32,400 nt of DNA from Alphaproteobacteria bacterium (GTDB lineage: Bacteria > Pseudomonadota > Alphaproteobacteria > Rickettsiales > JAIXRX01). Positions 1,961 through 32,055 of the stretch are shown here, in pieces; the first letter of the stretch is position 1, and every line of letters begins with the position of its first letter. The notes under the pieces were generated by a model that worked only from the letters and a program-made list of their open reading frames with translations, made no database searches and was not told where the DNA came from. The stretch spans positions 1 through 32,400 of the forward strand of contig JAIXRX010000179.1 in NCBI GenBank assembly GCA_027485005.1, in the 5' to 3' direction. Position numbers and translations under genes: made by a program.

Positions 1961-2125
1961 ACGTTGACTGGCGGATTCGGCAGGGGAGAAACGGACTAAG
2001 AAAACGGGCAACATTGGCGTAAGAAAAAAGTCTCCAGTCAACGCTCGAAAACGACGTCGCGAACGTGCGCGGCTGAGCGGCCAAATCATCTAAGTTATTG
2101 AAAGACAACAAGAAAATTGGTGGTG
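1961..2125. repeat. Direct repeat copy B; ends in aattggtgg but has lost the rest of the tRNA-like remnant
   Basis: About 90 percent identical to 411-530 over the first 120 nt. Similarity then decays but re-anchors at aattggtgg (2115-2123), the same string that precedes or starts the tRNA-Ala 3' end at 31977-31985. Confidence 0.8.
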
Positions 2126-2259
2126 TGTGGTGATCACTCTCGACACTGTGCTCAGTATGTACGCTGATATCCCCCGAAATACAGCGTAAATTTTAAAATC
2201 AGCAGTGTAATGACCCATCAAAATCTCGATTTCGCTGCCAGATCATGCTATTAGCATGA

Positions 2260-3222: not shown

Positions 3223-3235
3223 CTGCTGAGTTGGC

Positions 3236-9530: not shown

Positions 9531-9626
9531 TATAATTTATCCCTCCCCAAGGCATGCTAAATAATTCATTGCTGTGTTATAATCCTACCCATTTTAACGG
9601 CATCATTTGTTTATTGTGTTCTTATG

Positions 9627-10589: not shown

Positions 10590-10683
10590 AGTGCCCCCCT
10601 TGCTTCACTTCACCTATAAACGAATTTTCCCACATTATCCATACGGTCACATATAAGGTAGAGCGTTGATATTTTTTATGACT

Positions 10684-11277: not shown

Positions 11278-11357
11278 AAATGCTCGCTCCTTGTTAAGTT
11301 GAATGGACAAGGAGCATTTCCGCGATTCAGCGGAGTAACGGAAGTATACACGGAACC

Positions 11358-13819: not shown

Positions 13820-14727
13820 GCCAGAAACGCCGCTTCCCCAAAAGTGATATCAAAATCGGGTTCAGCCAAGAAACACTGACGCTCGATATGGCGCAGATCA
13901 TCCCCCTCAAACTCTTAACCAGCCATACCAAAGCAACCGATAAGTACAGGCAGATCCTAGCTTCCATTAAGGAAGTTGGCGTCATCGAACCCCCGGTCGT
14001 GACGCACTCCACGCAAGGACGTAACCGGTACATGCTGCTCGACGGTCATATGCGGCTAGAAGCGCTGCGTGAGCTGGGCGAGACGGAAGTGATCTGTATC
14101 GTGGCGGAGGATGACGAATCCTTCACCTACAACAAGCATGTGAACCGTCTATCGGCCATCCAGGAGCATAAGATGATCCTGCTCGCGGTCGAGCGCGGCG
14201 TGCCCGAGGAAAAGATCGCCAAAGCCCTTAATCTCGACGTCAGCAGCATCGTCCGCCGGCGCAACCTGCTCGAGGGCATCGCCCCCGAGGTAGCCGAGCT
14301 CCTCAAGGACAAGCTGGCATCCGTCGGTATCTTTCCGGTGCTGCGTAAAATGAAGCCCGTGCGGCAGGTGGAGGCCGCCATGCTCATGTGCGACGCCGGT
14401 AACTACTCGCTTTCTTATGCCAGGGCATTGCTCGCCGCCACGCCCAAAGAGCAGCTCATCAACCCAGAAAACCCAAAATCCGTGAAAGGTCTGACCGACG
14501 AGCAAATGTCCCGCATGGAAACCGAAATGGCCAGCCTGCAGCGTGAGTATCGCCTCATTGAAGAAAACTATGGCACGGATGTCCTGAACCTAACCCTCGC
14601 CAAAGGCTACATCACCTCGCTGCTCAGCAACGCGCGGATCGTGCGTTATCTTGCGCAGAACCATTCCCAGATGCTGGGGGAGTTTCAGAAGGTCGCGGAA
14701 ATGAAGGCGCTGGTGACGGAGCGGTAG
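13816..14727 (+). CDS. ParB-like / RepB C-terminal-domain-type protein (second paralogous ParB-fold gene)
   Basis: IKEVGVIEPPVV...YMLLDGHMRLEALRELG is a DGHxR ParB/Srx motif. It is followed by IAKALNLDVSSIVRRRNLLEGIAPEV (HTH) and a RepB-C-like tail. An ATGA overlap links it to the upstream gene. Confidence 0.85.
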   Translation: MSQKRRFPKSDIKIGFSQETLTLDMAQIIPLKLLTSHTKATDKYRQILASIKEVGVIEPPVVTHSTQGRNRYMLLDGHMRLEALRELGETEVICIVAEDDESFTYNKHVNRLSAIQEHKMILLAVERGVPEEKIAKALNLDVSSIVRRRNLLEGIAPEVAELLKDKLASVGIFPVLRKMKPVRQVEAAMLMCDAGNYSLSYARALLAATPKEQLINPENPKSVKGLTDEQMSRMETEMASLQREYRLIEENYGTDVLNLTLAKGYITSLLSNARIVRYLAQNHSQMLGEFQKVAEMKALVTER

Positions 14728-14906
14728 GCGGCTGGGGTGGCATGCATTCGCATGCAGGGGACCGGGACCCTAACAAGCGCCGGGACCACTGGAGAAGCTG
14801 CACGAGATGCAGATCAATCGTGGGGTGGGGATGCCGGCGAACCCGTGCGGGGCCCACTAGCAATCGTGAATCGGCAATAGTTTCATTTTAAGATATCTCA
14901 CCCTCA

Positions 14907-17900
14907 CTAAGTCCCGTCAGATGCCTGCACGACTGGATTTTGTAATTTTATTCTAAATAATTGCGACAAAGCTAAAATATGTTGTTTTAGAGCCTCGTCG
15001 CCTGAAACAAATAAATCCTGCATTCTTTCTTTGAAAAATTCTCGAGTTGTCTTGGGTGAAGATTTAAGCCATTTCAGTACGTCATCGGCATTAGCGGTTA
15101 GCCATGTAGCTCCTTCTGCACTGACAAGAAGCGGAATGACAATAGTACGAATAATATCATCTGGCTTTTCTTCAAAGTGTCCATCGTTAATAAACGAAGC
15201 CCCTCCAGCATTCAGTAGAGGTAAATGGTTGGCTGTTCCCTGCAACATTTGGTCGCGAACATTTCTTAGTATAGTTTGACGGCTATTTTCAGAAAGCAGG
15301 GAAGCCGCACCGAACCATCTTTGAATGATAGCCGAGTCGCCGCCTGTTATCATGTCAGGGACGATTGCGGTCATAGCCTCGAATAATGCCTGACCATGTT
15401 CGAAAGTATTCTTTGTTAGTTCTAATAGCTTTCTGGCTATTTGTAGTGGTTCAGCATTGTTTCTAATAGATTGGTTCCATATATCGCTGTTCAGATTCTG
15501 CAATTTGGTAAAAAGAGAATTCCTGGATTGCTCAGAAATGTCTTCATCATTTGACACAATCAAAGCCTCAAAAATCCTTACCGCGTTTTGTTCGAGCGGA
15601 GCGGCTTCAAACTTTTCCCAGAAGGTTTGGTAGCCTGTAATTATATTAAGAAAGGCATCATGCTTTTCGCTATCAATGCATAGAAGGTGCTTGGGCAAAT
15701 TATTGATAATGTCTTCGATAGGCAGCCGCCCCATGTCTTCATCATCTAAGCGTGTTGTGCAGATTGAACGAATAAGAGGTTGTAGACGTTGATTATCATT
15801 TGCTGCCCTGCTCAGAATGGTAAAGTTATCTCGCGAATGGTACTCGTCAAGACAGTCGCTGATAAGGGCGACAATTTCCTTTCTGTCATCCAAGGCAGCT
15901 TCCAAGTTATTAGCTATATTAATTCCCTCGTTCGCGCGTCCTTCACCATTTGTGTTATTGAATGCAGGATTGGTCAGAATGATCAAAGCCAGAATACTGG
16001 CCTCTACCTCAATTGCCATAGCGTTATGAGCTTGAGCGAATTTTTCAAATAGGAAACCTTCATTGGAAAGATTTGTTAAATGTGCTGCAGCTTTCGATTC
16101 TTTTTTGTTGCGCAGTTTGCCAAGCGTTTCCAAGGCTGTTTTTACGCCGGGTTGACCAATAGGAACACTCCTGATTCTTTGTGCGGCCGCTTCTGTATAT
16201 GGTTCTAAAGGCCATGTATCTTTGCACTTTAAAAGGCTGAAAAGCTTCTTCTCTACTGTATCATGCTGATTCTGGTCATCTAACTGACGGCCCAATTCAG
16301 CCATCACCCCTGCTTCATCCTCATGTATAATTTGCTTCATCACATCCGGGCGCTCCTCAAGCAAATATGCCATCTCTGCATAAGCTTGAGTATTTCCGGT
16401 GAATTTTATTTCAGGCATTCTGGATTTTTTAGAGGCTGCGCCATCGAAGATTATTTCGACACAATCACTCCAACTTTGAGCAAACGCCTTATCGTTAAGA
16501 AGGCTGGCCTCTACCTGAGAAAGGCGAGCGGTAAGAGGTTCTATATACTTTTGAACGTCAGCTTCAGCACAGTTTTTAATAAGCGCCTCGATACCTTTTA
16601 CATGGTCAGGCGTAAGCCTCTGCCAATTATTTGGTGCTCCAGCTTGGCGCTTGACTAGCTGCTTCCACACAGATTCCACCCAAGCATCCGCCTCAAACGA
16701 TTGACTGCCGAATAACAGACATGCATTAGCTGTAAATTCTGGTTCTTGGCTCGCACTTTCCAGGACATTTTCAAGAACAATATCGAAGCCCGGTATTACT
16801 GCCCATTTAGTAAACTCATTAACATTCCCATCTTGAATTGCCTTTGTGAGCGGCTCTTTCATTACAAGCTGAAGGCCCTTTTCTTTTTCTACGCCGAAAT
16901 GCAGCCCAGCTACACTTGCTTGCCAGTGTTCATCCAAGGCTGCAATTTCTGAATGATCGGCACTGATAAAATCAGCTACAGATTGCTCAATTTTATTTTT
17001 ATGGATGGCGAAGTATGCCACGGAATAAAAAGATATTTCGTTGCGCCATTGGAGCCATAAAACGGCGATCGAGTTTACCAGCGTATTTATAAGACGCGGC
17101 GTAACTTCGTTCTTTTCAGAAGCAAGGAATTTTTCATAGAATCTACCAACTTCATATTTCCAACTGGATGTGCATTCCTTAGCAAAAACCTCCTGCATTT
17201 GAGTATCCAGGTATTTCTTCCAATCCGAGAATACCGGCGGAGGCACACGGAAAGTGAGGTCGAAGGTTTTATCCATGAATGCCTGGGCCAATCTTTTGGC
17301 TTCATCATTATCTGAATGACCCGCAGCGTACATACGTTGAACCGCATCAGGGTCAATTGGAAGAAGAATGGTTGGTAGAGAAGTATTTATCTCATTTGCA
17401 TTCCTTTCTTCGGCTCCTAGGAAGAAACTACGAATTGTTGCCCATAACTCAACTGCAGCAGCCTCTGGCAGCCTATCCAGGTTATCAACCACAAATATAT
17501 AACGATGCTTGGGGTTTGACACATGCTTCAGCAAATCGCGGAACATGCGCTGGAACTCTATGGTCGTTGTGTCGGGAGAGCGAGTAACGCGATGGTTTAC
17601 ACTTTCTACAGCCCGATTCATAAACAAGGTCAAAATAGATTCCTTGTCGTAAGGTGGCCTATGAGTTGTCCAAAAGCGTTTTGTGAATGGATTACAGAAG
17701 GGGCGGCGACGTAAATAAATCCAGCCTGCAACTAAAGCTGGTGCACAAACAGCTAAGCAGCCCAAAACAAAAGCTGTAACCTCCAATTTCCCCCATACCA
17801 GCTCAATACCTTCTTTATGTTCGCCCGGATTTATCCAAGAAAATCCTAACGGAAGCGATATAGAAAAAACTGTTTCTTTAAGCCAGTCATGGTCAATAAA

Positions 17901-18371
17901 TGGGAAACCTATTGGAACTAGAAACAGCGATAATAAAATCCAACGCCCAGATTTGGTTAAGCTAGGCGTTGTGGTTGTTTGAGTATCCTCAACTTGGCCG
18001 TTAAGTATATTCAAGCGTTGCTTCCAATAATCGTCGTCGGAAAGTCCCAAATAATTGACTAATGTTTCAAGGAATGAGCGACGCGGTGGGTCGCTTTGAT
18101 GCCGCCAGGCATCGTAAATAAAAATATGCGTCTTCTTATCGGTTTCTTTATCTAGCCAATTTTGAATAAGGCGTATTACAGTTGACTTACCGCTACCCCA
18201 TCGACCGACTAAACCAATAACTTTTAGGTCGTCGTGCGTCTGAATTACCGAAGCAACGGCTTTTGCAACACGGTCATGGGTTCCAAACGAATCAGCTTCC
18301 GCGGCAGTATCTTTTATAAATCTTAGTGGAGGCGGCTCATTTTTTTCTGTTACATGCTGAACTTTGCTCAT
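14907..18371 (-). CDS. KAP-family P-loop NTPase with two transmembrane helices inserted in the NTPase domain (Tmn-like)
   Basis: Walker A is VGRWGSGKST (18180-18206). FIYDAWRHQSDPPRRSFL is the KAP signature. Hydrophobic segments lie at about aa 148-165 and 203-225, and Walker B is YIFVVDNLDR. The ATG at 18371 has AGGGAG 6 nt upstream, and the ORF could extend to 18386. The gene is markedly AT-rich. Confidence 0.9.
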   Translation of the reverse strand: MSKVQHVTEKNEPPPLRFIKDTAAEADSFGTHDRVAKAVASVIQTHDDLKVIGLVGRWGSGKSTVIRLIQNWLDKETDKKTHIFIYDAWRHQSDPPRRSFLETLVNYLGLSDDDYWKQRLNILNGQVEDTQTTTTPSLTKSGRWILLSLFLVPIGFPFIDHDWLKETVFSISLPLGFSWINPGEHKEGIELVWGKLEVTAFVLGCLAVCAPALVAGWIYLRRRPFCNPFTKRFWTTHRPPYDKESILTLFMNRAVESVNHRVTRSPDTTTIEFQRMFRDLLKHVSNPKHRYIFVVDNLDRLPEAAAVELWATIRSFFLGAEERNANEINTSLPTILLPIDPDAVQRMYAAGHSDNDEAKRLAQAFMDKTFDLTFRVPPPVFSDWKKYLDTQMQEVFAKECTSSWKYEVGRFYEKFLASEKNEVTPRLINTLVNSIAVLWLQWRNEISFYSVAYFAIHKNKIEQSVADFISADHSEIAALDEHWQASVAGLHFGVEKEKGLQLVMKEPLTKAIQDGNVNEFTKWAVIPGFDIVLENVLESASQEPEFTANACLLFGSQSFEADAWVESVWKQLVKRQAGAPNNWQRLTPDHVKGIEALIKNCAEADVQKYIEPLTARLSQVEASLLNDKAFAQSWSDCVEIIFDGAASKKSRMPEIKFTGNTQAYAEMAYLLEERPDVMKQIIHEDEAGVMAELGRQLDDQNQHDTVEKKLFSLLKCKDTWPLEPYTEAAAQRIRSVPIGQPGVKTALETLGKLRNKKESKAAAHLTNLSNEGFLFEKFAQAHNAMAIEVEASILALIILTNPAFNNTNGEGRANEGINIANNLEAALDDRKEIVALISDCLDEYHSRDNFTILSRAANDNQRLQPLIRSICTTRLDDEDMGRLPIEDIINNLPKHLLCIDSEKHDAFLNIITGYQTFWEKFEAAPLEQNAVRIFEALIVSNDEDISEQSRNSLFTKLQNLNSDIWNQSIRNNAEPLQIARKLLELTKNTFEHGQALFEAMTAIVPDMITGGDSAIIQRWFGAASLLSENSRQTILRNVRDQMLQGTANHLPLLNAGGASFINDGHFEEKPDDIIRTIVIPLLVSAEGATWLTANADDVLKWLKSSPKTTREFFKERMQDLFVSGDEALKQHILALSQLFRIKLQNPVVQASDGT

Positions 18372-18441
18372 GCTTGTCTCCCTCATACCGCATCACCACT
18401 TGCAGCAAACGTTATTTAGCCCCCGATGATTGAAGGCAATG

Positions 18442-19647
18442 TTATTGCTTTCCTAGTAACGACTCTATTTTACCCGTACTTTTGTTATATACGAATTTCA
18501 CGATTGACCCGTCCTTAATTTTCTCCACCGCTTCATCAATCACAAAGCGTGGCACTAGGAACCACTCGCGAGGAACAATTGGATTCCCAAAGCGGTCCTT
18601 AATCTCAATATTTAATCGAGCTGGCTCAAAGAATTTATGTATCAGCTTTTCCAATCTGACTCGATTGATGTTGGAGAGTTCGTATGTGGCAACAACCTCG
18701 ACATCTGCCATAAGAAAGGTCGGGTCTAGCTTAGCATTAGCAATACGCTTACTGATGTCGCTGCCGGTGACGCCGATTTTATGGATAACATCCCGATGTT
18801 CCTTGATGAGGGGGTGATCGGATTTGCTGCGCAAGATGTAGATAGTGCCGCTTTCAATGTCGCCATCCTCTACACTATCCGAGAAGAGTGGGCCTGCAGA
18901 AGGGTCTGTAATGCGGCGCCCCGCGTCATCTTTGTATAATGCACGCTGAAGGGAGCGCATTAGCAAGTCGCTCTCCGTTCCATTATCATAAACTACACGT
19001 AAGCGTGCATCAGTCGCACCATTCGGTGCCTTAATGATTTCACCTACTTCAGCAACGTAGACAATCTGCCCGCCCAATATGAAGAACTCGCCCTTTTCAA
19101 TACCTGCATCTTCTTTGAAGCGACGGCTTTGCCGTATGCCCGTCTTCAAATCTTCCTGCACAGCAAGAAAAAGCGGCTTGAATTTATCAAAATCGAGGCA
19201 TGGCGCGCGCTTAGCAATTTCCTCTGCAGCACGAATCTCAGCGCGAGTTTTTACGTGGGTTAGCTTCGTTATATCATTTTCACCGGCATCCAACACGCCG
19301 AGTTCGGCCAGCAGCGCATCGTCATCTAAATCGTCTGCGATCGGTTCATGGGCACCGGACTGGCCTGTAAGCAAGTTATGTTTATCCATACCGGCGAGGA
19401 CAGCACGGCACTCGCTAGAGGCCCGGATCTGATCGAGTCGGACAGCATAAAGCCGCTCGAAGATATCTTTATCTTCGCCATTGGTTGGCACGCGCCCATG
19501 CTGCTCAAAGAAGCGCTCTATGTCCTCGAAGCCTGCAATAATTCGCTCTTCTCGAGCTGAGCGGCTCGAGGCTTTGCGTTCTTCTACCTCAACACCAAGC
19601 TCGGCAAGCAGCGCATCATCTTCATCGGTAAATTTTGCTTTAGCCAT
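18442..19647 (-). CDS. T5orf172 (MUG113) / GIY-YIG-superfamily nuclease-like protein
   Basis: The C-terminal GTIYILRS...VIHKIGVTGSDISKRI...REWFLVP matches the T5orf172/GIY-YIG pattern (DNA ~18523-18852). The start overlaps the helicase stop by 8 nt (ATGGCTAA). Confidence 0.85.
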   Translation of the reverse strand: MAKAKFTDEDDALLAELGVEVEERKASSRSAREERIIAGFEDIERFFEQHGRVPTNGEDKDIFERLYAVRLDQIRASSECRAVLAGMDKHNLLTGQSGAHEPIADDLDDDALLAELGVLDAGENDITKLTHVKTRAEIRAAEEIAKRAPCLDFDKFKPLFLAVQEDLKTGIRQSRRFKEDAGIEKGEFFILGGQIVYVAEVGEIIKAPNGATDARLRVVYDNGTESDLLMRSLQRALYKDDAGRRITDPSAGPLFSDSVEDGDIESGTIYILRSKSDHPLIKEHRDVIHKIGVTGSDISKRIANAKLDPTFLMADVEVVATYELSNINRVRLEKLIHKFFEPARLNIEIKDRFGNPIVPREWFLVPRFVIDEAVEKIKDGSIVKFVYNKSTGKIESLLGKQ

Positions 19648-21697
19648 TCGCGGCCTCTGCTTTCATGCGCGCCATGAAGGCAATACCTTCGGCCATTTTC
19701 TTTTCCCACGGATCGGGGGATGTAAGCGATGGCAGCCGGCCGCGCTCTAGCTTGAATTTCAGCGCACGTTTCGCCAAATCACGCGCCTCATCCAATGTTA
19801 GGGGCGATTTCTTCCCTGCGATCACTGCCTGCACCTGTTTAAGGCTGTCCTCGGTCATGGCTTTTGCAAGGATGGCATACGCCTCGCCAAATGGGTTAAT
19901 GCGATCAATCAAATCGATATCGAGATCACGTACATCCATCGTGAATTTACGGACACCATCGATCAACGCAGTGTTTCCACCAGGCTGGAGCTCGGCGCCT
20001 GCATTGAGGATTTTCTTCGCCTGTTGGGTAAGATTAAGCGCCGCAACAGCATGCTGGCGAACGGCTTCCTGGTCTTCTTCATCAAGGTCAGGATATTTAT
20101 CCTTCACAATTTTACCCATACGCACTTGGGTCAACTCCTCAGGCACAGCCTCGGAATCGAATAGACCGCGCTCGAGTGCCGTTTTATCCTGCACAAACGC
20201 AGCAATCACCTCGTTCAGGTCTTCTTGGCAAATGCGGGTGGCTTCTTTGCTCTTTGGCTCAACCAATCCTTTAATCTCGATCTGGAATTGGCCTGTTTGT
20301 TGATTGAAGCCGACATTTTCCTTCTTAGGGTCATACCCGCCGGCACCATAATCGAAGCCCTCAATTGGGCCGCTGCCGGTGCTTTTGGGCGTAAAGTTGA
20401 ACTTCGGCGCGAGCACCTGTTCCATCAGCAGACTTGCGGCGATGGCCTTCAAAGTATCATTCACGGCATCCGTGACGGCATCCTCGGCAGCATCGGGCTC
20501 TGCAATGAAGTTGGTGAATCGGGTATGCGTCTTACCCTTCGCATCGCGCGTAGCGCGGCCGATGATCTGAATGATTTCTGTCAGGCTTGAGCGATAGCCG
20601 ACGGTGAGTGCATGCTCGCACCAGATCCAGTCGAACCCTTCCTTCGCCATACCGAGCGCGATGATGATGTCGACGTGATCGCGGTCGTCTTTGTGCGCAG
20701 GGTCTTTCAGCGCAGTAAGCACCTTGGAATGGCGCTCTGGCCCATCATCGACAAGATCGGCCACTTTAAGTAAGCGCCCATCGGGTAGCTCCACCAAATC
20801 AAAGCCCGTAATTGGGTCTTTGCCTTTCCACGAGCCGAGCGCATCCATAATCTCGCTGACCTCGGTGGTCTTGCCGCGCTTGGTGCTCTCGCGCGCATTG
20901 ACGTTGGGAATATGGATGATGGTTTTCAGATCTGGATCAAGCACATCCGCGATCTCGTCAATGTACGAACCGCTGTAGAAATAATAGCCGATATCAAGGC
21001 GCTTGAGATATTCATAGCCATTCAGCTGCTCATAGTAGGTGTAGGTGACTGACTCGAATTTCTCCTCATCCTGCGCTGACAGCACGGGAATGGCATCACC
21101 TCGGAAATAAGACCCGGTCATCGCCACAATATGCGCTTTTTCACGGGCAATGAGCTGCGATATGTTGGCGCCTAGGATGTTATCCTCTGACGCGCTGACA
21201 TGGTGAAATTCATCGACTGCAATCAGGCAATCGTCAAAAACAGCGAGGCCAAAGCGCTCTAGTGCGAAGCGGAAGGTGGCATGAGTGCAGACCAGCACAC
21301 GATCTGCACTTTCCAAAAACGCCTTCACCGAGTTAACCTTGCCGCCGTTATCATCCCCCGGTGCATTACACAGGTTCCATTGCGGCGCCACTTCCCAATC
21401 CGCCCAGAAACCGTACTTGGTGAGCGGCTCATTATTGAAGCTTGAACCGATGGATTTCTCCGGCACCACGATGATGGCTTTCTTGAGGCCTTGATTATGA
21501 AGCTTATCGAGCGCGATAAACATCAGCGCACGGCTTTTGCCCGAGGCTGGCGGGGATTTAATCAGCAGAAACTGCTCGCCACGCTTCTCATATGCGCGCT
21601 CCTGCATCGCACGCATACCCATTTCATTGGCCTTTGTCGAATTGCCGTTGCTCGCATAATTAACGGAAACGGATGGAACGGGTTTTTTCTGTGTCAT
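19640..21697 (-). CDS. SF2 DExH-box helicase (ResIII/type III restriction Res-like motor)
   Basis: Motif I is SPPASGKS (21533-21556), motif II is DEFH (21203-21214), motif III is MTGS and motif VI is QIIGRATR. The start overlaps the methyltransferase stop (ATGA). Confidence 0.9.
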   Translation of the reverse strand: MTQKKPVPSVSVNYASNGNSTKANEMGMRAMQERAYEKRGEQFLLIKSPPASGKSRALMFIALDKLHNQGLKKAIIVVPEKSIGSSFNNEPLTKYGFWADWEVAPQWNLCNAPGDDNGGKVNSVKAFLESADRVLVCTHATFRFALERFGLAVFDDCLIAVDEFHHVSASEDNILGANISQLIAREKAHIVAMTGSYFRGDAIPVLSAQDEEKFESVTYTYYEQLNGYEYLKRLDIGYYFYSGSYIDEIADVLDPDLKTIIHIPNVNARESTKRGKTTEVSEIMDALGSWKGKDPITGFDLVELPDGRLLKVADLVDDGPERHSKVLTALKDPAHKDDRDHVDIIIALGMAKEGFDWIWCEHALTVGYRSSLTEIIQIIGRATRDAKGKTHTRFTNFIAEPDAAEDAVTDAVNDTLKAIAASLLMEQVLAPKFNFTPKSTGSGPIEGFDYGAGGYDPKKENVGFNQQTGQFQIEIKGLVEPKSKEATRICQEDLNEVIAAFVQDKTALERGLFDSEAVPEELTQVRMGKIVKDKYPDLDEEDQEAVRQHAVAALNLTQQAKKILNAGAELQPGGNTALIDGVRKFTMDVRDLDIDLIDRINPFGEAYAILAKAMTEDSLKQVQAVIAGKKSPLTLDEARDLAKRALKFKLERGRLPSLTSPDPWEKKMAEGIAFMARMKAEAANG

Positions 21698-24474
21698 TTT
21701 GCAGCCCTCTTTTTCAGTTCATCCGCCACGGTCGGTTTGGCAGTCATTTTGGTGTAGAGATCAAACAGCTTTTCCAGCCGCTCGGTGTCATTTTTGAAGC
21801 GACGCCCGATATAAATGCGCTCTAGCACTTCGTCGTTGCGCTCGTGCGCGCGTCGAAGGTTTTCGGGCATGTGGTCGGGATCATATAATTCTGCGATGTT
21901 GGCAGGGAAATGCGCCTCCCGAGCCAGCAAAATATCTTCCGCGCATCGTGTAAGGTCAGCTTTATTCTTTTCTGTTAGCGGTGGAATTGGAAATGTATGC
22001 CATCCCATTTTATTAGAGTAGCTTAAGCGCGTTTCTAATTTGCCGCAAATTGCAGTTATCCAGCATAAATGGAGCTTGGATGACAGGATTGCAAAATTCC
22101 AAATATCGCCATCGTACAACGCATATGATTTATTGGTCATTGAGCAGGGGCGCCCAATTAAATCTGGTGTTAAGTATTCCCTATTTTCCGAGCTTACTAA
22201 AGGAACTGCAATCGTCCAATTAATAGCGGAGTTCATTTCTCTAAATTGATGCGGACGATTGGCCATTGATCTTGTGCCAGCGTCACTGCTTGCCAAACGC
22301 ATTTTTTTGACTTCCTCAATTCTTTTTCGAATAGCCTCGATTTTTATAGCTTCTGGCAAATCATCGTCTTCAATCCATATGCACTGACGGGGTAACCCAT
22401 CGATAATTTCTGCAGATCCTAATAATGGTCTCAGCCATTTTTTCTCTTCAAAACTTGATAAGCCAAGAGTTGGAGTCTCATCAATTTCTAAAATTAAATT
22501 TCCACCATCATAAGGGGCATTCCCAAGTGACATAGATGTTAAATCAGATATTGGGTTGACTCGACCCTCTACGATTATCTTGGATCCTGGAATTAAATAG
22601 GGTCCGATAAGGTTTGTAGAAGTCTCTAGTTCTTCTGATTCAGCTCCTACTTGGAATAAACGCTTTCTGCTTGTTTGTTGTTTTGAGAGTCCTGCAATAA
22701 TCACTGTTACGCCAGCATTATTACTTGCCAGGTTTCTCCATTTAAATGATTGATGTGCAAACTTAATATCTAGGTTGAGGTTGTAGAGTAATGGCCAAAG
22801 CACAGGCACATGACCGCCTTGGCAGATCGAGTTTGTACTCACAAATGAAAAATCAGCTTGTGTGTTTTGAGCATATAGGGCCGCTTTCATAAACCAGCCA
22901 CATACATAATCCAATGTTCCACTTCGCTTTGTATAATTATCAAAAACTGCTTTGAGATCCTCTTTCTCAGCTTTGCTTTGGTTTTTTGTGCCCTTATATG
23001 GCGGGTTACCACAGATGTAGGTTTCGCCACCTTCGTTTTCGAAATCAATTTGTGCTTGGTCGAGCGGTGTGCTGAATAAATCATCGCCTTGTAGCTTCAC
23101 GCCCATACCTGTTGGTGGGCAGATGGAAAGCCAATCTAGCCGCAGGGCATTACCACAGGTAATCCAGTTTTGTGCATCCAACGGAAGAAACTCTGCGAGT
23201 GCTTCCTTTTGCCCGCGATAGAGCACATCACACTGGTATTCGGCCATAATCAGCGCAAGGCGGGCCACTTCCGAAGGGAAATCTTTCAGCTCAATCCCTC
23301 GAAAGTTGGTGATGGGGATTTCTGTGCCGAGATGTTCTTCGCCACGCCGTTTGTTAATCTCCGCCTCAATCTCGCGCATTTGCTTGTAAGCAATGACAAG
23401 AAAGTTACCTGAGCCGCATGCTGGATCAAACACTCGAATCTTCGACATGCGCTTGCGTAGGTTGAGTAACATACGTGGGTTGTCGCCGGCTTCTTCCAGC
23501 TTCGCGCGCAGATCATCAAGAAACAGGGGGTTCAGAACCTTCAAGATATTGGGTACGCTCGTGTAGTGCATCCCAAGTGCGCCCCGCTCATCGTCATCGG
23601 TCACGGCCTGGATCATGGATCCGAAAATGTCGGGGTTGATCTGCTTCCAGTCCAAACTACCGACATGTAGCAAATAGGTGCGTGCGATTTTGCTGAAGCG
23701 CGGGGTCTCGGTGCTGCCCGAGAAGAGACCGCCGTTTACATATGGGAAGGTATCAGCCCAGCGCGGCAGTTTCGCCGTGGCACGATCCTTAATGGCGGTA
23801 TTCATCGCACGGAAGATTTCGCTAATAACCTCATGAGTGTTTGAGGAATCGCGCTCAGTCATCTGGTCGACCGTGGCCGTAAACAGGTTGCCGCTATTAA
23901 AAATACCAGTGTCTTCTGCATAGAAGCAGAAAATAAGCCGCGCCATGAAGTGGTTCATATCATGGCGTCGATCGGCCTTCCCCCACTCTGGGTTATCTTG
24001 TAGTAGCTGAATGTAGAGCTTGTTCAGGCGGCTTGTGGCGCGGATGTCGAAAGAGCTCTCGCGGATTTGCTTGACGGTGGTGATGCCTGCCAGTGAAAGG
24101 AAGAAGCCGAAGTGGTTCGGGAAATCCTCGTAGTCACAGGCAACGGTTTCGCCGGTGCCCATGTCCTCGGCCTGGAAATCCTGGCCATCGGTAGCTAGGA
24201 TAAATTTGGCTTTGTGTTTTACTGTAGCTGGGCTGCTTCTCAGCTTCTCCAGCATGTGGGACACATCACCCGCGGCGCAGGCTACCATGTGGATATTGCT
24301 TGGCTGAAGAACGGCGCCCGACAAATCAGTTTTATTCGAGTGCCCGGAGCGGAGCTTTTTGATTACTGTTGGCTTGTTACCGAAGGCTTCTAAAAACGCG
24401 TAAGGAAACTCTGCCGGATCAAAGGGTTGTTCGGCTAATTTTGATATTTCTTCTTCGATTTCTACTGCGTTCAA
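21694..24474 (-). CDS. MmeI/PglX-architecture N6-adenine DNA methyltransferase with C-terminal target-recognition domain; no nuclease motif seen
   Basis: Motif I is VFDPACGSGNFLV (23407-23430) and motif IV is NPPY (22996-23007). The helical spacer block LIFCFYAEDTGIF...FPYVNGGLF...LDWKQINPDIFGSMIQ is typical of MmeI-family enzymes. TTG start at 24474. Confidence 0.9.
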   Translation of the reverse strand: MNAVEIEEEISKLAEQPFDPAEFPYAFLEAFGNKPTVIKKLRSGHSNKTDLSGAVLQPSNIHMVACAAGDVSHMLEKLRSSPATVKHKAKFILATDGQDFQAEDMGTGETVACDYEDFPNHFGFFLSLAGITTVKQIRESSFDIRATSRLNKLYIQLLQDNPEWGKADRRHDMNHFMARLIFCFYAEDTGIFNSGNLFTATVDQMTERDSSNTHEVISEIFRAMNTAIKDRATAKLPRWADTFPYVNGGLFSGSTETPRFSKIARTYLLHVGSLDWKQINPDIFGSMIQAVTDDDERGALGMHYTSVPNILKVLNPLFLDDLRAKLEEAGDNPRMLLNLRKRMSKIRVFDPACGSGNFLVIAYKQMREIEAEINKRRGEEHLGTEIPITNFRGIELKDFPSEVARLALIMAEYQCDVLYRGQKEALAEFLPLDAQNWITCGNALRLDWLSICPPTGMGVKLQGDDLFSTPLDQAQIDFENEGGETYICGNPPYKGTKNQSKAEKEDLKAVFDNYTKRSGTLDYVCGWFMKAALYAQNTQADFSFVSTNSICQGGHVPVLWPLLYNLNLDIKFAHQSFKWRNLASNNAGVTVIIAGLSKQQTSRKRLFQVGAESEELETSTNLIGPYLIPGSKIIVEGRVNPISDLTSMSLGNAPYDGGNLILEIDETPTLGLSSFEEKKWLRPLLGSAEIIDGLPRQCIWIEDDDLPEAIKIEAIRKRIEEVKKMRLASSDAGTRSMANRPHQFREMNSAINWTIAVPLVSSENREYLTPDLIGRPCSMTNKSYALYDGDIWNFAILSSKLHLCWITAICGKLETRLSYSNKMGWHTFPIPPLTEKNKADLTRCAEDILLAREAHFPANIAELYDPDHMPENLRRAHERNDEVLERIYIGRRFKNDTERLEKLFDLYTKMTAKPTVADELKKRAAK

Positions 24475-24556
24475 AACTCCACCCCTTCAGGCCCACTATT
24501 TTTAGCAATTAGGAATACAGGAAAAATCGTTTTCGGCAACGGCTTAGCGGTATCTA

Positions 24557-24934
24557 TTAGCGGGTTTCTATCGTTGCCTCGCGGCGGCCGCTCACATTGC
24601 GAATTTCTTGCCTGCCTCCATACCCTTTCTCGATGCGGTGAGTGATACGGCCAGAGCCATCCTTAATGTATTGGCGGTCACCAATGCCGGGCTCGATGGT
24701 GCCAGTGCGGCGGCCGCTGGAATCCTTTATCACTAAGCGGTCGCCTATCCCTTGCTCAACGGTTCCGATGCGTTTGCCGCTGGCGTCGCGGCGAATCCAG
24801 CGGTCGCCATAGGATTTCTCGACGGTTTCAGCGCGCTTGCCGGAGCTGTCGCGCACGACATAGCGATCTTGCGCATGCGCGGCGGTGCAGAGGAAAAGCA
24901 ATGTAAGGGTAGCAAGTATGGTTGTTGCGCGCAT
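24557..24934 (-). CDS. Small secreted protein made of five tandem ~21-aa repeats
   Basis: It has a signal peptide MRATTILATLTLLFLCTAAHA/Q followed by 5 units of DRxxI(K/R)DxSG(K/R)RxGT(I/V)ExGxG. An AAGGATG SD precedes the ATG. Confidence 0.65.
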   Translation of the reverse strand: MRATTILATLTLLFLCTAAHAQDRYVVRDSSGKRAETVEKSYGDRWIRRDASGKRIGTVEQGIGDRLVIKDSSGRRTGTIEPGIGDRQYIKDGSGRITHRIEKGYGGRQEIRNVSGRREATIETR

Positions 24935-24990
24935 AAAACATCCTTTTTTAGGATGATGCTCGAATCTGAATTAGATTCAAGTGAAAGACG

Positions 24991-25221
24991 CTACAGCAGC
25001 GATTTCAGGATTTTGCTGGGGTTGGCCTTCAGCAGGCGGGTGATCTTCAGGAATTCGATCACATCGAGTCGGCGCTCGCCAAGCTCATACTTGGCAACAA
25101 ATGACTGCGGCTTATCCAGTTCTTTCGCCACTTGCTGCTGTGTCATCCCTGCAGCCTCACGCGCAGCGCGCAATGCAGCGCTGAGTTTGGCGGATTCTTT
25201 GGAATGAATGGTTTTCTTCAC
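24991..25221 (-). CDS. XRE-family HTH regulator (controller/antitoxin-like)
   Basis: LRAAREAAGMTQQQVAKELDKPQSFVAKYELGERRLDVIEFLKITRLL is a canonical Cro/C1 HTH. GTG start. It is divergent from the Mrr-like gene across an 80-bp intergenic region. Confidence 0.8.
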   Translation of the reverse strand: MKKTIHSKESAKLSAALRAAREAAGMTQQQVAKELDKPQSFVAKYELGERRLDVIEFLKITRLLKANPSKILKSLL

Positions 25222-25301
25222 GGTTGCCGCACAAAGGATTGGATATGTTGTGCAACCAGAGCTAATCCTGCTTTCGGATTATCCCAAAACAGGATGTTTA
25301 T

Positions 25302-26255
25302 ATGCCGCAAGCCAGCAGAGTGACTGCTAAAACAGCCCGCTATATCAAACTTGGAGGTGGCGGCGGATGGGAAGCCCAGTGCCTGAAAGAGGGCACCATG
25401 CGGCTGGGCTATTATGAAGTGCCCCATGAGCTAGGCCTCAAGCGCGACAAAGAGGCGATCAAGAATATCTATAAGGACACTGCTGGTTCGGTAGGGTCTG
25501 CCTCTGACCATGCACGCCAGGTAGTGGATTTTTATGACCCAGCCCCGGATGTGCTCTGGATCACCTTTGCCGATGGGCATTTATGGTGGGCGAAGGCTAC
25601 CCCGGAGATCACTTATTACGGCAATGACCCTGCAATACATATCGAGGGTAGCCGGTCACGTAAAACGGTCGATGGGTGGCATAAGACCAGCTTAGGCGGC
25701 AAGACCCTGAGGATCCTTGACCTAAATGGCGAGCTGACCAAGACGGGGGCCTATCGCGGCACTATGTGTGATCTAAAGCCCCATATGCGTGATTATGTGT
25801 TGCGCAAAATTAACGACGAGTTGCTGCCGGAGCTGGTGGAAGCGCAGGAAGCGATGGCTGATCTGCTGCATGCCGTGCAGCGGATGATCGCGATGCTGCA
25901 TTGGCGTGATTTTGAGCTGCTGGTAGAGCTGATCTTCAGCCATAGCGGCTGGCAGCGTGTCAGCGTGGTGGGCGATGGGCTGAAAACCACCGATATCGAG
26001 CTGCTGCTTCCGGTTACCGGTGAGCGTGCTATGGTGCAGGTGAAGTCGCAGACATCGCAAGCACAGCTCGATGAATACATCGCGGCATTCGCACGCTGGG
26101 ACATGCAGCGGCTGTTTTATGTCTATCACACGCTTAATAACGCCATGGCACTCGATGTGGAAGATGCACGCGTAACCCTCATCGGGCCTGAAAAGCTATG
26201 CACCATGGTCCTGCGTGCAGGGCTGGTAGAGTGGCTCATGGGCAAAGTGGGCTAA
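25302..26255 (+). CDS. Mrr-like (PD-(D/E)xK) restriction endonuclease-fold protein with an uncharacterised N-terminal domain
   Basis: The C-terminal WRDFELLVELIFSHSGWQRVSVVGDGLKTTDIELLL...AMVQVKSQ matches the Mrr_cat pattern (DFE..V..L, GiD, QVK). An AGGA SD lies 7 nt upstream. Confidence 0.75.
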   Translation: MPQASRVTAKTARYIKLGGGGGWEAQCLKEGTMRLGYYEVPHELGLKRDKEAIKNIYKDTAGSVGSASDHARQVVDFYDPAPDVLWITFADGHLWWAKATPEITYYGNDPAIHIEGSRSRKTVDGWHKTSLGGKTLRILDLNGELTKTGAYRGTMCDLKPHMRDYVLRKINDELLPELVEAQEAMADLLHAVQRMIAMLHWRDFELLVELIFSHSGWQRVSVVGDGLKTTDIELLLPVTGERAMVQVKSQTSQAQLDEYIAAFARWDMQRLFYVYHTLNNAMALDVEDARVTLIGPEKLCTMVLRAGLVEWLMGKVG

Positions 26256-26508
26256 AAAAAGCTTTTCATGCATTTTTGATTTGTTTATATTAGGCCTTAC
26301 AAAGCAGTTGGTATTGTGTTCGGAAGCTGGTTTTAGTGGTTTTTAGCGCTGTTTTGTTTTTTGGAAGGTAGATTGGCACGAACGGAGTGCGAGCAGCGAG
26401 GCTTGAAGGCCATCCTGAGTAATCACCTGGATTTATTCGAATAAACGGTTTGTAGCGCAATGCTGTGTTGCGCGGCTGATTGTTCGTGTTTCCAGAGAGG
26501 AGCTCATT

Positions 26509-27849
26509 ATGGAAACTTCACGTCACGGTGATATTGTTCACCGCCCCATTTCTTCACTCAAACCCAACCCCCGCAATGCGCGTACGCATAGTAAGCGCCA
26601 GATTCGCAAAATCGCCAATAGCATCGATGCATTCGGCTTCATCGGTTGTATTTTAATCGATACGGGAGGTACCATCATTGCCGGTCATGGTCGCCTTGAA
26701 GCGGCAAAGCTGCTCAAGATGGAAACGGTACCAACGCTCACCATTTCGCATCTGAACCCTGAAGAGATTCGTGCCTTAATGATGGCTGATAATCGCCTGG
26801 CCGAGCTTGCAGGCTGGGACGATGGGATCCTTGCTATCGAGTTTCAGGATCTGATGAGTACAAATCTTAAGTTCGACATCACGCTGACTGGCTTCGAAGC
26901 ACCACAGATCGATATGATCATCATGAAGCAACGCGCGGCTGAGGATGAGGAATCCGGCGATCAGGTGTTCATGGATGAGAACGATCCGGTCGTGAGCCGC
27001 CCGGGCGATCTCTGGCTGGCCGAAGAGCACCGCATCTACTGCGGCAATGCGCTCGAGCCAGAGTCCTATGCCCACCTCATGCAGGGTGACGTGGCGGATG
27101 TCGTTTTCACAGATTATCCGTATAACGTAAAAATTTCAGGCAACGTGTCCGGTCTCGGCAAGCATAAGCATGGCGAGTTCGCGATGGGATCGGGCGAGAT
27201 GGGCGATCCACAGTTCATTGGTTTCATGCACACCGCTGCCATGCGTATTACTGAAAATGCACGCGCAGGAAGCATTCACTTCCTGTGCATGGATTGGCGC
27301 GGGGCGGATAAGCTCATGCAGGCGTCGCAGGGCGTTTACAGCGAGTTGAAGAATATTTGCGTGTGGAATAAAGATAAGGGCGGCATGGGGGCGCTCTACC
27401 GCTCGAAGCATGAGTTCGTCTTTGTTTATAAGCAAGGCGATGCGCCACACGTGAATAATATCGAGCTCGGCCGTCACGGACGCAATCGCACCAATGTATG
27501 GGATTACCCCAGCGCCAACAGCATGATGAACCGCGATGGCGGCATGCTGACCAAGCACCCCACGCCAAAGCCCGTGGCCATGGTTGCCGATGCGATTCGC
27601 GATTGCTCGAACCAGCGCGACCTTGTCCTTGATCCGTTTGGTGGTGGAGGCAGCACCCTGATGGCCGCGGAGCGCACGGGGCGCGTTGCGCGCATCATGG
27701 AAATCGAACCGCGTTACGTAGACGTGATCATTCGCCGCTGGCAGCAGAAGACCGGTAAATCGGCGATTCTTGCCTCGAGCGGGCTTCCCTTCGATGCCGT
27801 AGCCACTGCGCGCGCCGCTCAGGCAGGCAAGGAGGTGCAGCATGGCTAA
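26509..27849 (+). CDS. ParB-like N-terminal domain fused to a beta-class N6/N4 DNA methyltransferase (phage-type ParB-MTase)
   Basis: ISSLKPNPRNARTHS...IIAGHGRLEAAKLL is the ParB N-domain. Motif IV is TDYPYN (27112-27123). Motif I is at the C-terminus (LVLDPFGGGGSTLMAAERTGR), which is the beta-class order. Confidence 0.9.
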   Translation: METSRHGDIVHRPISSLKPNPRNARTHSKRQIRKIANSIDAFGFIGCILIDTGGTIIAGHGRLEAAKLLKMETVPTLTISHLNPEEIRALMMADNRLAELAGWDDGILAIEFQDLMSTNLKFDITLTGFEAPQIDMIIMKQRAAEDEESGDQVFMDENDPVVSRPGDLWLAEEHRIYCGNALEPESYAHLMQGDVADVVFTDYPYNVKISGNVSGLGKHKHGEFAMGSGEMGDPQFIGFMHTAAMRITENARAGSIHFLCMDWRGADKLMQASQGVYSELKNICVWNKDKGGMGALYRSKHEFVFVYKQGDAPHVNNIELGRHGRNRTNVWDYPSANSMMNRDGGMLTKHPTPKPVAMVADAIRDCSNQRDLVLDPFGGGGSTLMAAERTGRVARIMEIEPRYVDVIIRRWQQKTGKSAILASSGLPFDAVATARAAQAGKEVQHG

Positions 27850-28216
27850 AGATTATAAAATCGGCCGCGGCAAGCCGCCTGCGGACAAGCAGTTCAAGCC
27901 AGGCCAGTCGGGGAATCCGGCTGGCCGCCCCAAAGGCAGCAAAAACTTTAAAACTGACTTCATGGAGGAATTGCAGGTCAAGATTGAGATCGCCGAATCC
28001 GGTGCAAAGCAAACCGTTACCAAGCAGCGCGCGCTCATCAAGCGCATGATCAACGCAGCGCTGAGCGGTGACGCCAAGCACGCGGATATGGTTGCTCGTC
28101 TTACCTTGAGCTTCACTGAAGTGGATGATGCAAAAGGCAGCGAGCAAATGAGCGAGGAAGATCTGGCACTGCTGGAAGCCTTCATCCAGGGGCAGCGCGG
28201 GGGTAACAATGCATAG
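27842..28216 (+). CDS. DUF5681-type protein, likely small terminase subunit
   Basis: GRGKPPADKQFKPGQSGNPAGRPKGSKN is the DUF5681 signature. The gene sits immediately upstream of TerL and overlaps it, and it has 8-nt overlaps on both sides. Confidence 0.7.
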   Translation: MAKDYKIGRGKPPADKQFKPGQSGNPAGRPKGSKNFKTDFMEELQVKIEIAESGAKQTVTKQRALIKRMINAALSGDAKHADMVARLTLSFTEVDDAKGSEQMSEEDLALLEAFIQGQRGGNNA

Positions 28217-29639
28217 CATCCAACACCTGCCTGCTGAATTCAAGCGCAAGGCCCTTAACTGGGCCTTGCGTGAGGATTTTCGTGTTTTCCTGCGCAAAGC
28301 CTTTCATGACGTGCATGGGGTTCCACTCGCGTGGAATTGGCACCATGACGTGATTTGTGACGATCTGATGGCCGCTTATCGCGGCGAGCAACGTCGTCTC
28401 ATCATCAACGTGCCGCCGCGCTCGCTAAAATCCTTCATTTGCAGCGTTGCATTCCCGGCATGGCTGATGGGGCGTAACCCGCGCATCAAAATCATTGGGG
28501 TCAGCTACGCGCAGGACCTGGCCAATAAGTTCTCGCGTGAGCAGCGTATGTTGATGATGCGCCCCTGGTATCAAGAGGCATTCCCCGAGGCGCGTATTAA
28601 CCCAAAGAAAGCCGGTGAAGGCGAATTCGAGTTGCTGGGCGGTGGTTTCCGCCTGGCAACCTCGACTGGCGGCATTCTTACCGGCCGCGGGGCGGATCTG
28701 ATCATCATCGATGACCCCATGAAGCCGCAGGATGCGCTTTCCGAAACCATGCGCATGAATGCCAATAACTGGGTGGATAGCACGCTGATGACCCGCCTGG
28801 ATGATAAGCAGCGTGGGCAAATGGTATTGATCATGCAGCGCCTGCATGAGGAAGATACTACCGGCTACCTGCTTGAGAAAGGCGGATGGACGCATCGTAG
28901 CTTCCCAGCCATTGCCCTTGATGATGAGCGTTGGCAAACCGGCGGCGGCAAAGTCTACACGCGCAAGGCGGGTGAATTGCTCCACCCCTCGCGTGAGCCA
29001 AAGCAGGTGCTCGATGATTTGCGTCGTGACCTGGGCCAAATGAACTTCAGTGCCCAGTACCAGCAGATGCCGGTGCCGTTCGATGGAAACATGCTCAAGA
29101 AAGAGTGGTTCCGCTATTATGACGGAGCCCCCTCGCAATCGCAGCGCTTCGTCATGAGCGTGGATACGGCCATGAAGGAAGGTGCCGATAATGATTGGAC
29201 GGTCATCACCATCTGGCAGATGGAAAAAGACGCCTATTATCTGGTGCACATGACCCGTGAAAAAATGGCATTTCCCAAATTGCATGCCACCATTCGCTAC
29301 TTGAAGGAGGTTTTTAAGGTACGCACAATCCTGATCGAAGATACAGGCTCTGGCACTGCACTGATTCAGCAGCTGCGCTTTGAAAACATCTACTGCCACG
29401 GCGTGAAGCCCGTGGGAGATAAGGTTGAGCGTCTCGCTACTGCCAGCATCGCGTTTGAGCAGGGTCGCGTTTATTTCCCGGCCCATGCGTCGTGGCTGCC
29501 CGATCTTGAGCGTGAATTGCTTGGCTTTCCGGCCACAAAACACGATGATCAGGTCGATAGCATCAGCCAATACCTGAACTGGGCGCTCACGGAGGGGCGC
29601 TACGTTATAGGTTATGCACGCGCAATCGGCATGTACTGA
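28209..29639 (+). CDS. terL: Phage terminase large subunit
   Basis: The ATPase region has INVPPRSLKS (Walker A-like) and LIIIDDPMKPQDA (Walker B). The C-terminal RNaseH-like nuclease region has FVMSVDTA...WTVITIW...ILIEDTGSGTALIQQL. Confidence 0.9.
   Translation: MHSIQHLPAEFKRKALNWALREDFRVFLRKAFHDVHGVPLAWNWHHDVICDDLMAAYRGEQRRLIINVPPRSLKSFICSVAFPAWLMGRNPRIKIIGVSYAQDLANKFSREQRMLMMRPWYQEAFPEARINPKKAGEGEFELLGGGFRLATSTGGILTGRGADLIIIDDPMKPQDALSETMRMNANNWVDSTLMTRLDDKQRGQMVLIMQRLHEEDTTGYLLEKGGWTHRSFPAIALDDERWQTGGGKVYTRKAGELLHPSREPKQVLDDLRRDLGQMNFSAQYQQMPVPFDGNMLKKEWFRYYDGAPSQSQRFVMSVDTAMKEGADNDWTVITIWQMEKDAYYLVHMTREKMAFPKLHATIRYLKEVFKVRTILIEDTGSGTALIQQLRFENIYCHGVKPVGDKVERLATASIAFEQGRVYFPAHASWLPDLERELLGFPATKHDDQVDSISQYLNWALTEGRYVIGYARAIGMY

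Positions 29640-31979: not shown

Positions 31980-32055
<76 letters not shown>

Follow-up and report, generated by a model that had tools for sequence, protein, structure and literature searches.

Can a restriction-modification system be spread over three polypeptides, with a nuclease, a motor and a specificity protein each encoded by a gene of its own? The question is raised by three adjacent genes (the trio) in a 32,400-nucleotide (nt) stretch of GCA_027485005.1 (contig JAIXRX010000179.1, positions 1–32,400, forward strand), referred to below as the window. An earlier note on this DNA had proposed that a methylase, a helicase and a GIY-YIG-type protein act together here as a split restriction-modification-like system with a swapped nuclease. 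We found that the trio almost certainly belongs to the DnmA(YeeA)-YeeB-YeeC family. The gene set, its synteny and the suggested division of labor were published as early as 2009, and the locus is an ordinary member of a widespread cluster. As for function, we rate a three-subunit, ATP-dependent restriction-modification system, borne by a mobile element and working through communication between sites, as somewhat better than an even bet.

Operon structure of the trio

According to the list of open reading frames (ORFs), the trio consists of three ORFs on the minus strand, which overlap at both junctions:

21694–24474, minus strand: yeeA/dnmA-like gene, 926 amino acids (aa), TTG start; N6-adenine methyltransferase of the gamma class and the MmeI family, fused to a target recognition domain (TRD), predicted to provide specificity and modification
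21694–21697, minus strand: yeeA-yeeB stop/start overlap, ATGA, where '...GCA AAA TGA' shares letters with 'ATG ACA'
19640–21697, minus strand: yeeB, 685 aa; stand-alone superfamily 2 (SF2) helicase/translocase, from BLASTP to named YeeB proteins and from SF2 motifs
19640–19647, minus strand: yeeB-yeeC overlap of 8 nt, ATGGCTAA, where '...AAT GGC TAA' shares letters with 'ATG GCT AAA'
18442–19647, minus strand: yeeC, 401 aa; candidate nuclease whose N-terminal half is helical and whose C-terminal domain is of the T5orf172/MUG113 type (GIY-YIG superfamily)

The ORFs and both junctions read as the earlier note had given them, and its description of the three proteins was borne out as well. The methylase has the MmeI-type architecture with motif I, NPPY and a TRD, as seen from five MmeI Pfam domains and both motifs. 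The SF2 motor is separate, since the DEFH helicase has an ORF of its own with GKS, DEFH, TGS and QIIGRATR motifs. The candidate nuclease of the GIY-YIG superfamily is also separate, as the third protein matches Pfam T5orf172 and MUG113. A promoter and terminator scan of positions 14700–25500 gave promoter-like counts no higher than those expected from shuffled sequence and a modest excess of terminator-like sites, none of which bounds the operon.

Relationship to DnmA(YeeA)-YeeB-YeeC

Homologs of MmeI form two sets, one with the PD-ExK nuclease motif and one without it, the latter diverging from MmeI over the first ~100 residues (Morgan et al., 2009, NAR, PMC2731913). The PD-ExK-less set is 'invariably' flanked by a DEAD-type YeeB-like helicase and a YeeC-like protein with GIY-YIG motifs. 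It was proposed that the MmeI-like subunit provides specificity and protective methylation and that its N-domain contacts a helicase and a nuclease that form subunits of their own, 'similar to type I R-M systems' (Morgan et al., 2009). Every feature of this second set that can be checked in a sequence is found in the window, namely a methylase that is MmeI-like past the first ~100 aa, the absence of PD-ExK, and adjacent YeeB and YeeC proteins. The same three proteins occur in the same order and on the same strand in Bacillus subtilis and Vibrio crassostreae. The locus belongs to a proteobacterial-type clade and shares 73–98% identity with many copies from metagenomes and genomes.

Reference YeeB and YeeC sequences of B. 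subtilis and V. crassostreae were taken from Figure S5 of PMC9973331 and compared with the window proteins by BLASTP. YeeB aligned over its full length to both references, with 48% identity to the B. subtilis protein (E=0) and 44% to the V. crassostreae protein, including the C-terminal tail (E=0). YeeC was 33% identical to the B. subtilis protein (E=2e-52) and 32% identical to the V. crassostreae protein over the full length (E=4e-58). The C-terminal tail of YeeB and the C-terminal part of YeeC are thus present in the window and in Vibrio, and both are missing from the B. subtilis proteins.

Parts of the cluster have been characterized, with further work in 2020–2023. DnmA makes N6-methyladenine (m6A) at GACGAG in B. 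subtilis (Fernandez et al., 2023, mBio, PMC9973331), and yeeAB mediated resistance to the P1b_red phage group in V. crassostreae 7F1_18 (Piel et al., 2021, bioRxiv 10.1101/2021.05.05.442762). A literature search for a more recent name of the system or for studies of its mechanism, including work since 2023, found nothing past the papers cited here. The trio is therefore not novel: it maps to the named dnmA(yeeA)-yeeB-yeeC cluster, for which synteny, the B. subtilis methylation motif and phage phenotypes are published. The earlier note had named beforehand, as an outcome that would refute it, that the trio maps to an already named and characterized family, and this is largely what we found, the cluster being named and partly characterized. 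The idea of a split restriction system was right in its anatomy and is plausible as to function, but the same hypothesis was already put forward by Morgan et al. (2009).

A methylase with an MmeI-type N-domain but no PD-ExK motif

The following parts of the methylase could be located:

23998–24474, minus strand: N-terminal MmeI_N-type domain, aa 1–159 (Pfam MmeI_N, 1.1e-33), without the PD-ExK catalytic motif
22996–23430, minus strand: methyltransferase catalytic core, from motif I to motif IV; 79–91% identity to the window among 69 homologs
23401–23430, minus strand: motif I, FDPACGSGNF, aa 349–358, by direct reading
22996–23007, minus strand: motif IV, NPPY, aa 490–493, by direct reading

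Besides MmeI_N, the Pfam domains are MmeI_hel (4.8e-27), MmeI_Mtase (2.5e-114), MmeI_TRD (5.5e-72) and MmeI_C (2.6e-17). The methylase also matches the PADLOC model REase_MTase_IIG (PDLC03598) over its full length with 6.2e-282. With phmmer, it aligns to the sequence of the MmeI structure 5hr4 (E=1.6e-137), and the alignment runs from query residue 89 onward. The N-terminal 162 aa searched alone gave no match to MmeI and nothing in the PDB. Across the alignment of 69 methylase homologs, D..(D/E)xK is not conserved within the first 100 aa, while the first 50 aa are 71–78% identical to the window. Just ahead of aa 89, where the MmeI alignment starts, sits the segment GAVLQPSNIHMVACAAG (24268–24318, minus strand). 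This segment would correspond to the place of D70...E80-x-K82 in MmeI.

Judged from the homologs, the PD-ExK motif of MmeI is lost in YeeA while the N-domain is retained and conserved. The statement of the earlier note that the methylase has no nuclease motif is thus correct for the catalytic D...ExK, which is gone in the 69 homologs, but the MmeI N-terminal domain itself is still there. Since this domain is highly conserved yet without catalysis, it probably serves some other purpose. The obvious candidate is docking or signaling to partners, and the domain is presumed here to serve as a docking or communication domain for YeeB and YeeC. YeeA and MslORFHP, the Moraxella homolog, showed no endonuclease activity when expressed alone (Morgan et al., 2009). 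Despite its PADLOC match, the window methylase is predicted not to be a functional Type IIL/IIG enzyme. The match reflects the shared non-nuclease domains and is an annotation trap.

The motor YeeB and the candidate nuclease YeeC

The SF2 motifs of YeeB are found at the following positions:

21527–21553, minus strand: motif I, PPASGKS
21200–21214, minus strand: motif II, DEFHH
21107–21121, minus strand: motif III, MTGSY
20627–20647, minus strand: motif V, AKEGFDW
20543–20569, minus strand: motif VI, QIIGRATRD

Pfam matches of YeeB are weak (ResIII 3.3e-06, DEAD 1.1e-05). Its AlphaFold2 model has a predicted local distance difference test (pLDDT) score of 62 and a predicted template modeling score (pTM) of 0.40. 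When this low-confidence model was used with Foldseek, the matches were to generic SF2 proteins at template modeling (TM) scores of ~0.2, with HsdR of EcoR124I on ranks 3–4 and LlaGI on rank 46 (TM 0.21), and these scores do not discriminate between motor types. Sequence and profile searches of the PDB with YeeB and YeeC gave nothing meaningful. The weak structure models of both proteins are due to shallow alignments. A module shared between the C-terminal tail of YeeB and the N-terminus of YeeC was considered and rejected (hhalign probability 9%).

Three elements can be placed in YeeC:

18517–18849, minus strand: T5orf172/MUG113 domain, aa 267–377 (Pfam T5orf172 2.2e-12, MUG113 1.2e-15, both above their cut-offs)
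19591–19620, minus strand: acidic decapeptide DDALLAELGV, copy 1, aa 10–19, in the N-terminal half
19294–19323, minus strand: acidic decapeptide DDALLAELGV, copy 2, aa 109–118, in the N-terminal half

Conservation in YeeC was counted over 92 diverse homologs that are 36–63% identical. Y270 is found in 92/92, K290 and G292 in 91 each, R301 in 90, E333 in 88, H337 in 84 and E361 in 91, and W362-F363 is near-invariant. Position 289, which corresponds to the second Tyr of GIY-YIG, varies: 56 homologs have H, 21 have Y and 8 have F, and the protein of the window has His. In YeeC, the predicted core of Tyr, Arg and Glu that a GIY-YIG-type nuclease should have is intact. As this core is conserved while position 289 varies between H, Y and F, a tyrosine at this second place is evidently not required. 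The AlphaFold2 model of YeeC has a beta-beta-alpha-beta-alpha order that agrees with GIY-YIG, but its pLDDT is 48, and no alignment of YeeC to a solved GIY-YIG structure was obtained from the PDB sequence and profile searches. Acidic Leu-rich counterparts of the decapeptide stand at both positions in the YeeC family consensus and in the Vibrio protein and are degenerate in B. subtilis YeeC. It may be speculated that these repeats form a short docking motif.

Conservation of the trio across genomes

Relatives of YeeB and YeeC are very numerous, each protein having no fewer than 8000 database clusters at 90% identity. The top 120 YeeB clusters are all >80% identical, and for YeeC a clustering at 50% identity gives 648 clusters with E≤1e-30. 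With one genome per species, at least 591 YeeB relatives were confirmed. The best 80 of these are 73–82% identical and span Chlorobiaceae, Mariprofundus, Nitrosomonas, Nitrospirales, Bacteroidota, Terriglobia, Geobacter, Bdellovibrionales, Gemmatimonadota, Frankia and many Alpha- and Gammaproteobacteria. YeeB was also found in 265 plasmid records, of which 119 were typed as conjugative and many came from clinical genera. It was almost absent from the phage genomes searched, and no near-identical DNA of the locus was found in E. coli genomes. Many Acinetobacter baumannii plasmids (e.g., NZ_CP008851.1 and NZ_CP096708.1) hold YeeB-like fragments only, covering query residues 10–168 or 157–672, which suggests that the system has repeatedly decayed or been disrupted in this lineage.

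Synteny was surveyed in 80 genomes from many phyla, and loci were counted only where there was enough flanking sequence. YeeC lies directly downstream of YeeB in all 77 loci, with an identical 8-nt overlap in 68 of them, and an MmeI-like methylase is found upstream on the same strand in 68/70 loci. Such co-conservation is far beyond chance and agrees with the view of the earlier note, which had suggested this survey as a check, that the trio is one functional unit. The high identity of YeeB across distant phyla, together with the retained 8-nt overlap, implies purifying selection on the YeeB-YeeC pair. YeeB-YeeC is a tighter unit than methylase-YeeB.

The distance between the methylase and yeeB reaches ~2.7 kb among the loci examined, and the gap usually holds 1–3 genes on the same strand. 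The families found there are RhuM (8 loci), PLD-like, AlbA_2/HATPase_c_4, GmrSD_N, YhcG/DUF1016, DUF3800 and Abi_C, along with several recurrent families without a Pfam match, e.g., one of 277 aa and one of 282 aa. Examples of such gaps are L012:5465–8007, L030:6256–8004, L034:6236–7927 and L084:9207–9992. The slot gathers defense-type cargo even between systems that are 97–98% identical. Genes of this kind are also embedded in Type I hsd operons, and the pattern fits a restriction-modification-like operon on which other defense genes can land.

Probable exchange of the specificity segment

The part of the methylase that would set its target stands out by composition:

21955–23037, minus strand: variable low-GC specificity segment, aa ~480–840, which includes MmeI_TRD at 21976–22587

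GC content is 0.34–0.44 in this segment and 0.50–0.57 in the remaining yeeA, a sharp drop that is limited to the specificity half. Two close relatives, a locus from GCA_964530085.1 (L084) and L085, allow the segment to be compared within near-identical systems. Against both, aa 1–440 of the methylase are mostly 93–100% identical, whereas aa ~480–840 are only 23–55% identical. YeeB is 97–98% identical to that of L084 and L085, and YeeC, which was compared in L084 only, is 95% identical. The low-GC segment thus coincides with the sole segment that differs from the near-identical relatives, and aa ~480–840 is also the variable part across the 69 methylase homologs of the family.

We consider this segment probably to be a recombined TRD cassette. 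Differences in the TRD between otherwise near-identical relatives point to cassette swapping, as would be expected under selection for new targets. Since the window methylase has a TRD of its own, its recognition site presumably differs from those of known members.

Proposed mechanism and alternatives

If the trio is a three-subunit ATP-dependent restriction-modification system, as we favor, YeeA would bind a short asymmetric site and methylate one adenine on one strand, by homology to MmeI and DnmA. At an unmethylated site, its catalytically dead N-domain would recruit or license a YeeB-YeeC complex. YeeB would then spend ATP to translocate or unwind the DNA, and YeeC would nick or cleave it. 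These last steps follow the domain assignments and the proposal of 2009. Methylation of one strand leaves one daughter duplex unmarked after replication, so self-protection would probably need communication between two sites via the motor. A requirement for two sites is known for MmeI, Type III and Type ISP enzymes.

The trio appears to be active rather than a relic, considering its full-length partners, the invariant catalytic-type residues, the conserved N-domain, a TRD that is diversifying and has foreign GC content, and its place in a defense island. Whether it stands for a mechanistically distinct class of ATP-dependent restriction we regard as evenly balanced. In such a class, a dead PD-ExK domain would dock a free SF2 motor coupled 1:1 to a GIY-YIG-type nuclease, and sites would communicate through the motor. 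The compact, full-length locus studied here would be an active member with a specificity of its own, and defense-finder models would mislabel loci of this kind as Type IIG.

Several points weigh against a restriction system of this design. In B. subtilis, deletions of yeeB and yeeC had no phage phenotype, loss of dnmA had no effect on DNA uptake, and GACGAG is not avoided in phage genomes (PMC9973331). The Vibrio report covers yeeAB only and does not mention a role of yeeC (bioRxiv 10.1101/2021.05.05.442762). Our literature search found no report on ATPase activity, cleavage, complex formation or structure for any member of the family. The models of YeeB and YeeC are poor (pLDDT 62 and 48, respectively), so that the motor type and the GIY-YIG fold are predictions. 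Not all T5orf172 domains are proven nucleases, and the second Tyr of GIY-YIG is H, Y or F in this family. Finally, the ATGA overlap between yeeA and yeeB is not conserved, as ~40 of the 72 measured loci have a gap of >300 base pairs (bp).

Alternatively, the trio might provide methylation-gated defense without classical restriction, in the manner of BREX or DISARM. YeeA would mark self, and YeeB-YeeC, as a helicase-effector pair, would block replication or trigger abortive infection on unmethylated incoming DNA, with YeeC acting mainly by DNA binding or nicking and not by double-strand cleavage. The Vibrio phenotype, which is limited to some phage subclades, would fit such a mode, and so would the poorly conserved second Tyr of YeeC and the weak PADLOC matches of the methylase to DrmMI, PglX and mad2. 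On the other hand, no PglZ, BrxC, DrmA or DrmB was found in the scanned genes of the window. This search covered candidate genes in 1283–11424 and 14907–27849 with PADLOC, and the recombinase and ParB/RepB genes (11358–14727) and the terminase with Pfam only, and it ran no further than position 29639. Moreover, Y270, R301, E333 and E361 of YeeC are near-invariant, as a working GIY-YIG-type site would need, and TRD shuffling is typical of sequence-specific restriction. We therefore hold a non-cleaving mode to be unlikely.

It is highly improbable that the methylase is an orphan epigenetic enzyme accompanied by inactive relics of yeeB and yeeC, as was concluded for B. subtilis. That species shows gene-expression effects besides the lack of phage and transformation phenotypes (PMC9973331), and in a 2025 review of restriction-modification DnmA appears only as an orphan methyltransferase. 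The authors of the mBio study suggested the missing C-terminal stretches of the Bacillus YeeB and YeeC as a reason for inactivity (PMC9973331). In the window, by contrast, the proteins are full length, these C-terminal segments are retained and the catalytic motifs are intact. Purifying selection on YeeB-YeeC, as implied by the sequence identity and the overlap, also argues against relics, as does the location of the locus as mobile-element cargo inside a defense island.

Least probable of all are two independent adjacent systems, a stand-alone MmeI-type Type IIG/IIL enzyme and a helicase-nuclease pair: the full-length REase_MTase_IIG match would make automated annotation call a single-gene Type IIG system, YeeB-YeeC holds together more tightly and other genes part the methylase from yeeB in about half of the measured loci, but the methylase lacks the PD-ExK motif, YeeA and MslORFHP alone have no endonuclease activity (PMC2731913), the methylase accompanies YeeB-YeeC almost everywhere, and yeeA and yeeB overlap by ATGA in the window.

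Genomic neighborhood and mobile element

The trio is flanked by the backbone of a mobile element. On the left, a serine recombinase gene and two ParB/RepB-like genes lie within 11358–14727 (plus strand). On the right, 25302–29639 (plus strand) holds a borderline Mrr_cat-like gene, a ParB_N-N6_N4 methyltransferase gene, a small ORF and the gene for a terminase large subunit. The small ORF (27842–28216) stands where relatives carry DUF5681. In L084 and L085 the trio is likewise flanked by this backbone family, which in L084 includes the terminase. The shared backbone proteins are only 43–62% identical to those of the window, compared with 95–98% for the trio (YeeB in both loci, YeeC in L084), so the trio moves as a cassette. 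It was also found on three plasmids, from Agrobacterium, Pseudomonas and Kozakia, with unrelated flanks. Near the right end of the window lies a tRNA-Ala(GGC) gene (31980–32055, minus strand), which may be the integration site of the element.

Other genes of note around the trio are the following:

14907–18386, minus strand: KAP-family P-loop NTPase, 1159 aa (Pfam 3.9e-23), with an N-terminus that resembles PifA (PADLOC 2.8e-19) and QatA (4.9e-12)
24557–24934, minus strand: small protein of 125 aa, encoded between the helix-turn-helix (HTH) gene and yeeA; its N-terminus resembles a signal peptide, and a repeat of ~17 aa (..DxSGKRxGTIExGxGDR..) occurs about five times in tandem
24991–25221, minus strand: Xre-type HTH_3 gene upstream of the methylase, with weak resemblance to C-proteins and capH
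within 3236–9530, minus strand: P-loop protein, 1711 aa, Avs4-like STAND, with weak similarity to Avs4 (2.3e-13) and PDC-M54A (2.3e-09)
within 3236–9530, minus strand: HNH protein, 388 aa, matching Type IV methyl-directed restriction models (1.8e-29) and PDC-S36 (3.2e-22)

The KAP NTPase gene begins 55–70 bp past yeeC with no obvious terminator between them. It was rejected as a fourth subunit because none of the 83 related loci examined carries it and its GC content is 0.43, compared with ~0.5 for the trio. It is probably a separate single-gene defense candidate. The Mrr_cat-like gene (25302–26255) was likewise rejected as the 'missing' PD-ExK nuclease, being absent near the trio in the 83 related loci and borderline in Pfam (2.6e-4). 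The 125-aa repeat protein has no Pfam, PADLOC or NCBIfam match. Neither this putatively secreted protein nor the HTH protein has a homolog in the 83 related loci, and both were discarded as conserved regulators.

Elsewhere, unrelated small genes abut the start of the methylase (L001, L011, L013, L016, L022, L039 and others). Upstream of the methylase, a HigA-like HTH gene is found in ten loci (annotated so in L001) and an excisionase-like HTH gene in seven. In eight loci, a pair of genes in this position resembles, by eye, a VapB/VapC-type antitoxin and PIN toxin.

The genes of the Avs4-like and HNH proteins overlap at 4395–4402, and the pair looks like a second defense system in the same island. 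The trio lies in a defense island with this pair and the KAP NTPase.

The YeeABC family is very large, yet our literature search found neither a solved structure nor published biochemistry. Although its nuclease motif is gone, the methylase passes for an entire Type IIG enzyme in annotation tools, so defense inventories miscount such loci. An exchangeable cassette with swappable TRDs and a slot that gathers defense genes in relatives is a useful anchor for finding new defense genes. The remaining interest lies in the biochemistry of a widespread system and in the behavior of the cassette and the slot documented here.

Comparison with known restriction and defense systems

BREX and DISARM require PglZ and BrxC or DrmA and DrmB, respectively, none of which was seen in the scanned genes, and the earlier note was right to set the locus apart from both. 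The NCBIfam PglX models hit only the motif I region of the methylase and score far below their cut-offs.

The MmeI enzyme (Type IIL/IIG; 5hr4) shares with YeeA the series of N-domain, helical spacer, gamma-class methyltransferase, TRD and C-domain, and by homology YeeA should place m6A on a single strand of an asymmetric site. They differ in that MmeI has a catalytic N-terminal PD-ExK domain, whereas YeeA has none and is joined by two extra genes.

The Type ISP enzymes LlaGI and LlaBIII have the same inventory of nuclease, SF2 motor, gamma-class methyltransferase and TRD. Theirs is one polypeptide with an Mrr/PD-ExK nuclease, however, while the trio is three polypeptides, with a GIY-YIG-superfamily protein as candidate nuclease, and none of the three matches Mrr or PD-ExK in Pfam. 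Type ISP enzymes also recognize an asymmetric site and modify one strand, and their translocation-collision logic would solve the same problem of self-protection. The comparison with Type ISP made in the earlier note holds for the domain inventory but is an analogy only, as no specific similarity of the motors was seen (TM ~0.2 with a low-confidence model).

Type I systems such as EcoR124I place the motor/nuclease and methylase/specificity functions on separate subunits, as does the trio. The nuclease of HsdR is a PD-ExK domain, whereas the candidate nuclease of the trio is a separate GIY-YIG-type protein and HsdR is absent. The trio has no HsdS because its TRD is fused to the methylase in a monopartite arrangement. 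Finally, hsd operons tolerate embedded accessory defense genes, and the YeeABC operon does the same.

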